Shown here piece by piece: positions 34,184-35,497 of a DNA stretch of 64,000 nucleotides. The stretch is taken from the IMG/VR virus record IMGVR_UViG_3300031555_001876; one strand, 5' to 3'. Both the position numbers and the translations under genes were made by a program. The notes under the pieces were generated by a model, which saw only the letters and a program-made list of their open reading frames with translations, had not been told where the DNA came from and did no database searches. Source of the DNA: a virus. How positions within the stretch are numbered: the stretch's first letter is position 1; each line of letters opens with the position of its first letter.

Positions 34184-34777
34184 ATGAATGCTTGTGATAT
34201 TTTTATTAAAAATTATGTTGATGAAAATGGTTTTAGTGATATTATTTTTATTAATGATTTAATTGAAAAATATGGAGAAAAATTTAAATCTAATAACGGC
34301 TGTCAATGGGCTAGAAAAGGCTCTAAACTGGATAAAAAATATAACTTAACTCGTTTTCATGCTAATGATTTAGGCGGTAAAGGCAATAAAACAGTAGCAA
34401 TTCAAGTCCAAGGTTTTAGAGAAACTATTGAAAATCATAATATTCCAATAAGTGTTAAAAATTCTTTAAAAAATAAACCTTGTGCTGTACTTGGTGTAGT
34501 TACTAGCGATATGGAAATTGACCATAAAAATGGTAAATATGACAATGATTATTATCAAGAAAATGATTTTCAACCATTAACAAAAAGCGTTAATGATGCA
34601 AAAAGAGAGCATTGTAAAAAATGTAATGCATCTGGATGCCGTTTTAAGGCATCTATTTTAGGATATAGTGTAGATTTTATTGAAGGTGATGAAAACTCTC
34701 CTACTTGCCAAGGCTGTTATTGGTATGACCCTCAATTATTTAATCGCACTATTTCAGCAAATTTTATTAAAAAGTGA
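34184..34777 (+). CDS. HNH family endonuclease, 197 aa.
   Basis: ORF-track ORF. MEIDHKNGKYDND...HCKKCN resembles an HNH-type motif with Cys pairs. Confidence 0.55.
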   Translation: MNACDIFIKNYVDENGFSDIIFINDLIEKYGEKFKSNNGCQWARKGSKLDKKYNLTRFHANDLGGKGNKTVAIQVQGFRETIENHNIPISVKNSLKNKPCAVLGVVTSDMEIDHKNGKYDNDYYQENDFQPLTKSVNDAKREHCKKCNASGCRFKASILGYSVDFIEGDENSPTCQGCYWYDPQLFNRTISANFIKK

Positions 34778-34789
34778 GGAAGAGTAAAT

Positions 34790-35497
34790 ATGATTTTTGA
34801 TTTTAAAAATGAATCTTGTTTTGATTTTTTACCTAAAATTCCAACTAATTCAATAGATTTAATTCTAATTGACCCTCCTTATGAAATTTCTCGTCCTACT
34901 AATTTTTAGTCAGGAGAAGAAACTGGAAGAGATACAGATAGATTTAGAATTTCTATGGATTTTGGTGAATGGGATAAGAATTTTTCAGGATTAGATATTG
35001 TTGTTAAAGAAGGATATCGAATTCTTCGTCCTGGTGGAACTATGATTTGTTTTTATGACCTTTGGAAAATTGAATCACTTAAAAATTTATATGATAACAA
35101 TAAATTTAAACAAGTGAGATTTATTGAATGGGTAAAAACCAACCCTGTTCCAATTAATAGTAAAATTAACTATCTGACAAATGCACGAGAAGTAGCTGTT
35201 TCTGCTATTAAAGTTTCTAAGCCTACTTTCCATAGTTCATATGATAATGGAATATATTTTTATTCTATTTGTCAAGATAAAGGAAGATTTCATCCTACTC
35301 AAAAGCCACTAGCTTTTATGGAAGAATTAATTAAAAAGCATTCTAATGAGGGAGATACTGTATTAGATTGTTTTGCCGGCAGTTGTACTACTGGATTGGC
35401 GGCTTATAATACTGGTAGAAATTTTATTGGATGCGAAATTGATAAAGAATATTTTGAAAAGGCTAGTAAACGTGTTGCTCATTGTAAATCAGAATAA
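34790..35497 (+). CDS. DNA methyltransferase (DPPY motif; N6-adenine or N4-cytosine, beta class), 235 aa, 1 in-frame TAG.
   Basis: ATG 34790 after GAGGAAGAG. LILIDPPYEI, then TAG 34907, then the ORF-track 34955..35497 part with FHPTQKP and LDCFAGSCTTG (AdoMet-binding motif I). Confidence 0.65.

Follow-up and report, generated by a model that had tools for sequence, protein, structure and literature searches.

Does the gene pair at positions 34184 to 35497 of this viral DNA form a restriction-modification (R-M) system, or does a homing HNH endonuclease stand there beside a methylase that merely protects the phage? The pair lies in a stretch of 64,000 nucleotides (IMG/VR record IMGVR_UViG_3300031555_001876), which was analysed as a whole and is called the window in the following. 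The original prediction placed an HNH gene, followed 12 nt later by a beta-class methylase gene, behind the fourth copy of a repeated promoter, and both parts of this description were borne out by open reading frames and sequence motifs. The nuclease gene (34184-34777, + strand) encodes 197 amino acids, ends with TGA and carries MEIDHKNGKYDND and HCKKCN. After an intercistronic spacer of 12 nt (34778-34789, +), at which a ribosome-binding site (GAGGAAGAG) shares bases with the stop codon of the nuclease, the methylase frame (34790-35497, +) runs from an ATG at 34790 over 235 codons to a TAA that ends at 35497 and contains LILIDPPYEI, FHPTQKP and LDCFAGSCTTG. The pair is thus real and intact; what had been overlooked is an in-frame TAG in the methylase (34907-34909, +) and the recoded genetic code in which it is read.

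The two genes appear to form one transcription unit. A sigma-70-like promoter at 34124-34152 (+), composed of TTGATT, a 17-nt spacer and TG-n-TATAAT with 10/12 hexamer matches, precedes the nuclease, and the two-gene unit is bounded downstream by the next promoter copy (35508-35536, +); no other sigma-70-like match within 33000-36600 scores as well as these two. The 15-mer promoter core AAATATGATATAATA is present in 16 copies in the window compared to 2.4 expected, and the copy of the pair is the fourth in order. No terminator-like site was detected between nuclease and methylase, nor between the methylase and the promoter at 35508-35536; a terminator-like hairpin at 33236-33253 lies 3' of the preceding large gene. 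Two GC-rich hairpins at 35553-35600 (CCCTCTTG/CAAGAGGG and ATGGGCG/CGCCCAT), located between the promoter at 35508-35536 and the next gene, had no match in Rfam.

The identity of the nuclease is central to the question. It matches the Pfam family PF05315 (ICEA) over residues 12-189 with an E-value of 9e-27 and 94.5 bits (cut-off 24), and its structure model, which displays the beta-beta-alpha fold, suggests an N-terminal winged-helix-like domain and a C-terminal HNH beta-beta-alpha-metal domain with a Cys4 zinc site. The combination of an HNH motif with a structural Cys4 zinc site is on record for HNH restriction enzymes (PMC4081073). Across 26 aligned homologues with identities as low as 38%, E111, D113, H114, K115, N137, K140, R141 and the four cysteines of two CxxC pairs are invariant and H143 is nearly so. 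The only full-length fold match among predicted viral structures was the 'ICEA1 virulence factor' of the giant virus CeV-01B (TM 0.74), whereas phage homing HNH structures aligned with a core of about 60 nuclease residues only (TM 0.2-0.3, E > 0.04), and no Pfam match to the homing HNH clades (HNH_3, AP2-linked, I-HmuI-like) was obtained. Taken together, the ICEA match, the conserved residues and the full-length 'ICEA1' fold match assign the HNH protein to the restriction-type rather than the homing-type enzymes. A catalytically dead protein or one from a homing clade unrelated to R-M systems, both considered in the original prediction, does not agree with these data: the catalytic residues are invariant at a dN/dS of 0.20-0.47, and the protein is a full-length member of the ICEA family.

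The nuclease had no match in NCBIfam, PADLOC or PDB sequences, and tblastn of the nuclease against 50,697 GenBank phage records retrieved no IceA/NlaIII-family gene; one unannotated match was located on a Priestia megaplasmid. A profile search with alignment A1 yielded 837 relatives, and none of the 120 matches listed was informatively named. Identity of the nuclease to the bacterial homologues found does not exceed 46%. The functional assignment of the family comes from Helicobacter pylori, in which, according to a passage of PMC2816704 that cites Xu et al. 2002, IceA1 is a functional NlaIII isoschizomer, i.e., an endonuclease that recognises CATG; hpyIM, the partner of IceA1, is the CATG methylase.

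The second protein aligns with positions 1-219 of the 221-position model of Pfam family PF01555 (E 2.6e-36) and with PADLOC MTase_II (E 2e-49). Motif IV (DPPY) is found near its start and motif I (FAGSCTTG) near its end, which is the beta-class order. The canonical partners M.NlaIII and M.HpyI are D12 alpha-class methylases; with 18 bits, the phage methylase stays under the cut-off of the D12 family (PF02086) and is not a D12-class partner. Its closest solved relative is an adenine methyltransferase of H. pylori (5hfj/5hek, E 3e-36), which has a reported specificity other than CATG, followed by MboIIA, CcrM and RsrI, and N4-cytosine enzymes score far worse than N6-adenine enzymes. These nearest relatives and the DPPY motif favour adenine methylation. 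On its own, the methylase has many phage relatives in the GenBank phage records, including one from E. coli rV5-like phages (52.6% identical) that seems to stand alone.

Linkage of the two families was found repeatedly in viruses and bacteria. Among 55 IMG/VR viral loci with a member of the nuclease family, giant-virus bins included, the nuclease is linked to a methylase in 46. The methylase family of the pair (45-90% identical) is adjacent in about 25 of the 55, in the order nuclease-methylase, methylase-nuclease or convergently, and the remaining loci mostly adjoin a second beta-class family, a D12 alpha-class or a C5 methylase, so that IceA-family nucleases are partnered by at least four methylase families (two beta-class, D12 and C5). 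In bacteria, the best 80 of 444 species loci were inspected, and in 35 of these the same methylase family (48-71% identical) is encoded immediately upstream on the same strand; many of the loci with the pair come from rumen and gut Firmicutes. These bacterial pairs, which also occur in Alphaproteobacteria and others, consist of the same two families (nuclease 35-46% identical) and differ from the phage pair in two respects, namely the standard genetic code and the gene order, with the methylase first in 35/35 bacterial pairs among those 80 loci and the nuclease first in the phage lineage. The nuclease family is known, and its combination with such a methylase is common in bacteria.

From this evidence, the pair is probably a type II R-M system of the NlaIII/IceA1 kind, predicted to cut CATG and to methylate it to m6A. 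The notion of a compact phage-borne R-M unit thus gains support from ICEA membership, from methylase linkage in bacteria and viruses and from the full-length fold match. With NlaIII of Neisseria lactamica and with IceA1/HpyI and M.HpyI (hpyIM) of H. pylori, which are type IIP systems for CATG, the phage nuclease shares PF05315 and the HNH motif with Cys4 site, and the phage pair shares the two-gene organisation with an adenine methylase; the CATG target of the phage pair is a prediction. The partner is different, as it is a beta-class PF01555 protein of 235 amino acids, while D12 methylases adjoin other members of the family. Moreover, the bacterial systems reside on the chromosome, whereas the phage pair is carried by a lytic-looking large phage and its methylase requires TAG suppression. 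CATG specificity, m6A chemistry, timing and biological role of the pair are what we infer from such comparisons.

Site statistics bear on the predicted target. The window contains 12 CATG sites where 188 are expected, 10 AGCT sites where 155 are expected and 14 GATC sites where 167 are expected, i.e., each of the three tetramers occurs at 6-8% of its expected frequency. A 2.4-kb stretch (10626-12969) accounts for seven of the 12 CATG sites, and three are at 33962-34358, two of which (33962 and 33998) are in the gene upstream of the nuclease and one (34358-34361) inside the nuclease gene itself. The module of about 2.6 kb around the first group (10626-13218), which encodes Hoc-like/DUF6273 proteins, holds 7/10 AGCT sites in addition to the 7/12 CATG sites and looks like a recent acquisition that has not yet been purged. 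Because the loss of AGCT and GATC is equally strong and not attributable to this one system, host restriction pressure is probably a major cause of the extreme value of the window, and much of the CATG loss may stem from host restriction systems and not from the phage's own nuclease.

A CATG-specific signal emerges from the comparison of many viruses. In many viruses with a family member, no other palindromic tetramer is as strongly depleted as CATG, and some loci lack it altogether in 20 kb. The median observed/expected ratio of CATG is 0.29 in IceA-carrying viral loci, and 78 viral loci drawn at random at comparable GC content give 0.69; ratios below 0.3 occur in 54% of the former and 10% of the latter (Fisher p 1e-7), and AGCT does not differ between the two sets. 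Within the phage group, the CATG median is 0.39 in 12 carriers and 0.59 in 54 non-carriers (p 1e-4), with no carrier/non-carrier difference for GATC, AGCT or GTAC. These p-values are optimistic because the loci are not phylogenetically independent, although the direction of the effect is still specific for CATG. CATG is thus the probable target of the pair as judged from site counts and family membership. An unlikely alternative is a working R-M pair with a target other than plain CATG, either a longer site that contains it, such as GCATGC (SphI) or RCATGY (NspI), or another sequence. The divergence of the nuclease from all bacterial homologues found (at most 46% identity), the non-canonical methylase class of its partner and the ability of small HNH enzymes to drift in specificity speak for it, whereas CATG itself is the most depleted tetramer in many carriers and its depletion tracks carriage within the phage group.

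Six viral loci (L034, L035, L037, L042, L051 and L058) encode an IceA-family nuclease with zero CATG and no recognisable methylase in 8-20 kb; in L034 and L042 the nuclease has an N-terminal fusion of some 125 amino acids or more. In these six loci, self-protection by total loss of CATG may replace methylation.

Whether the nuclease is still in use can be judged from the phage lineage, in which 16 distinct loci were collected. In all of them the nuclease precedes the methylase at a distance of 2-17 nt, and the nuclease frame is intact in 16/16. Purifying selection acts on both genes, with dN/dS at 0.20-0.47 in the nuclease and 0.06-0.18 in the methylase. Four other metagenome contigs contain an identical pair, TAG included, and a contig of about 185 kb is on record with the same nuclease. 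The phage is present in the samples JGI 3300024269, 3300018493 and 3300024303 and ENA ERZ27248446; among GenBank phages, there was no near-identity match for window positions 30000-38000. Since many H. pylori iceA1 alleles are inactive, it is conceivable that the phage nuclease is likewise an inactive remnant and that the methylase is kept to escape host CATG restriction. The much better conservation of the methylase would suit such a scenario (89-90% identity among relatives compared to 69-77% for the nuclease; dN/dS 0.06-0.09 versus 0.20-0.32), as would the strong avoidance of three tetramers, which points to heavy host restriction pressure. We consider it quite unlikely in view of the intact nuclease frame in all 16 distinct relatives, the invariant catalytic and zinc residues, a dN/dS well below 1 and the lack of TAG codons in the nuclease gene, which suggests selection on its translation.

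The pair is unevenly distributed within the phage group. In most lineage loci with gene content examined, the pair is located close upstream of a DUF2828/DUF7788 gene, while it is absent within 8 kb of the DUF2828 gene in 66/66 relatives that were found via the DUF2828 protein (48-84% identical). In one of these 66 relatives without the pair (L287), the adjacent downstream gene is 100% identical to that of the window. The R-M pair is an accessory cassette with a patchy occurrence among relatives. A nuclease without methylase was never encountered in the 16 distinct loci of the phage lineage, and for this reason a mobile R-M cassette fits better than a homing endonuclease. A simple version of a very recent acquisition, which one might read from the three CATG sites inside and close to the nuclease gene, was rejected since the pair and the DUF2828 and vault-like genes have diverged together in relatives.

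The second possibility raised at the outset, a self-protecting anti-restriction methylase with an unrelated, free-standing homing HNH gene upstream, received no support and is very improbable. Phages often carry orphan methylases, the rV5-like relative appears to be one of them and homing-endonuclease-like paralogues flank the pair; against this, the HNH protein belongs in its full length to the ICEA family, the linkage to methylases extends over 46/55 viral and many bacterial loci and the similarity to phage homing HNH proteins is confined to the short core.

The paralogues in question are three genes (33281-34123, 35650-36402 and 38086-38859) with zinc-ribbon repeats (WxCxCDCG...SCGC) and a C-terminal DUF2726-like nuclease-type domain. 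Inserted between conserved genes, they look like free-standing selfish genes of the homing-endonuclease type. L287 contains a 100% identical copy of 38086-38859, and in the adjacent DUF2828 gene the identity falls to 58% over the first ~115 codons, a pattern suggestive of a recombination breakpoint near 36790. Another group of genes (30777-33227, 36450-38006, 47260-48717, 19435-20733 and 41537-43306), comprising a vault-shoulder-like protein, DUF2828/DUF7788, a Band-7 protein, an SLH protein and NAMPT, follows a separate codon style with a GC3 of 0.32-0.42, a preference for AAG over AAA and no TAG; CAG replaces CAA (0 CAA and 27 CAG in one gene), and this CAG-only habit is kept in relatives. 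The GC3 of the R-M pair and the selfish-looking genes is 0.12-0.14. The major-vault-protein-like gene (MVP shoulder and Vault_3; 30777-33227) and the DUF2828/DUF7788 gene (36450-38006) co-occur in numerous viral contigs (L287-L352), the majority of which measure about 40-200 kb. Other genes of the window encode type II topoisomerase subunits, an ATP-dependent ligase, NAMPT and an SLH-domain protein, a set that fits a large phage of a Gram-positive-type host.

The integrity of the methylase gene depends on the genetic code. In the standard code, the TAG at 34907-34909, which is codon 40 and follows shortly after the DPPY motif, cuts the frame into ORFs of 39 and 180 amino acids. In the homologues L005, L009, L012, L013, L016 and L021 this codon is CAA or CAG, and in L007 and L008 it is TAG. 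A suppressor tRNA with the anticodon CUA is encoded at 18826-18900 (+; ARAGORN; Rfam tRNA 43.5 bits) and would be needed in trans for the methylase. It is part of a cluster of five tRNAs (17795-19349) behind the repeated promoter, with a copy of the same type at 18697-18724 ahead of the suppressor tRNA; an Rfam search of the window returned the five tRNAs and nothing further. At least 20 other window genes need TAG read-through, which unites fragments into long genes, for instance at 506-3394 (three TAGs) and 50752-52056 (five TAGs); in-frame examples are found at 1379, 1517, 1613, 35752, 35860, 36181 and 36220. The neighbouring gene at 35650-36402 contains four in-frame TAGs, one of which aligns with a Gln of its paralogue at 33281-34123 (EYDGE-TAG-HF and EFDGEQHF). 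Overall, TAG accounts for 36/439 Gln-coding codons in 41 window genes, and no gene examined in the window has TAG as its terminal stop. Crude ORF-coverage tests of the genetic code are not discriminating in this AT-rich window, and the code was called from the tRNA, the joining of genes and the Gln alignment. The window is a fragment of a code-15 (TAG = Gln) phage of the gut-phage kind, and its suppressor tRNA makes the methylase gene an intact one. That TAG is a true stop, the methylase a pseudogene and the nuclease left solitary is barely credible, as the split of the frame in the standard code is outweighed by the tRNA(CUA) and the many other genes that need read-through, by the alignment of TAG with Gln in homologues, by strong purifying selection across the methylase frame on either side of the TAG and by the identical arrangement in four independent metagenomes.

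The in-frame TAG is unevenly distributed between the two genes. In the 16 loci, the nuclease genes contain 133 CAA and CAG codons and no TAG, whereas the methylase genes contain 81 CAA and CAG codons and 13 TAGs (13/94 Gln-coding codons; Fisher p = 6e-6). The methylase TAGs occupy five independent positions (codons 3, 14, 16, 39/40 and 108), and the chance that five independent events all fall in the methylase is about 0.012. In the clearly recoded loci only, the nuclease, DUF2828 and vault-like genes together have 259 CAA and CAG codons and no TAG. Chance is a sufficient explanation for the window alone, where a TAG-free nuclease is unremarkable given its 7 Gln codons and a TAG rate of 8%; it is the comparison across relatives that makes the asymmetry notable. 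This codon bias suggests a need to translate the nuclease without the suppressor, whereas dependence on it is tolerated or favoured by selection in the methylase. Since TAG occurs in most methylases of recoded relatives and never in the nuclease, the suppressor-dependent methylase may be delayed or limited relative to the nuclease. Code-15 gut phages share with the window the suppressor tRNA and the separation of TAG-free and TAG-containing genes into different blocks (bioRxiv 10.1101/2021.08.26.457843; PMC9523058), and their recoding has been proposed to act as a translational timer (bioRxiv 10.1101/2021.08.26.457843). That work deals with lysis, structural and integrase genes, and the words 'restriction' and 'methyltransferase' are absent from its text. 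An extension of the idea to the present locus, in which stop-codon recoding would serve as a timer or throttle on the antidote of a toxin-antidote pair, is a suggestive hypothesis to which the codon counts lend support, although it is less likely than not.

A scheme for the action of the putative R-M system can be outlined as follows. Both genes would be expressed from a single message, transcribed from a promoter type that host RNA polymerase uses; TAG-free genes or tRNA genes stand behind the same promoter class in 9/11 units, and early transcription by the host polymerase fits because this promoter type precedes tRNA genes and mostly TAG-free genes. The nuclease cistron, which is equipped with a ribosome-binding site and free of TAG, should be translatable on the unmodified host ribosome and would provide a small HNH endonuclease of the NlaIII/IceA1 family that cuts CATG, while translation of the methylase would halt at codon 40 unless the phage tRNA(CUA) inserts Gln. 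The beta-class adenine methyltransferase is expected to protect the same site by N6-methyladenine. If the timer operates, a naive host would translate the nuclease at once and the methylase would follow the build-up of the suppressor tRNA, so that CATG sites of the host would be cut before they are protected and the pre-methylated, CATG-poor phage genome would be spared. The likely use of the system is offensive, by cleavage of unmethylated host DNA and of competing phage or plasmid DNA, a role that we infer by analogy. Phage DNA would escape since it has nearly no CATG sites, and the remaining ones may have been methylated in the previous cycle and receive the mark again as soon as the methylase appears.

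Virus-encoded type II R-M systems with comparable features have been studied in viruses of eukaryotes. CviAII of chlorovirus PBCV-1 (nuclease A252R, methylase A251R) recognises CATG, produces m6A and is expressed early, and its nuclease spares hemimethylated DNA (PMC7248222). In the GATC system of a marseillevirus, transcription of the nuclease precedes that of the methylase by about 15 minutes, and the system is regarded as an anti-competitor weapon (PMC7253447). Unlike the phage pair, neither system involves a genetic-code switch, and CATG is mildly under-represented in PBCV-1, whereas the phage window is nearly devoid of it. A nuclease-first order like that of the phage pair is also known from Eco29kI, whose partially overlapping genes are thought, in a passage of PMC3113576, to constitute an operon in which the nuclease cistron is first; for this and other operons of that order, one has to ask how the methylase can keep pace (PMC3113576). 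In the phage pair, the only visible asymmetry between the cistrons is the stop codon that needs a suppressor tRNA. CATG biology has further been published for Ureaplasma UpaP162, C. thermocellum and F. nucleatum M.Fnn23.I, with no sequence there to compare.

The implications reach from this phage to the whole family. NlaIII-type systems are spread through uncultured viruses, with 55 IMG/VR loci compared to none in 50,697 GenBank phage records, and the association of CATG loss with carriage offers a way to guess the specificity of such enzymes from sequence alone. For the DNA of the phage itself, the prediction is N6-methyladenine at the few CATG sites present. Should the TAG asymmetry be functional, it would represent a simple new way of ordering the expression of toxin and antidote and would give alternative genetic codes a concrete role in phages.
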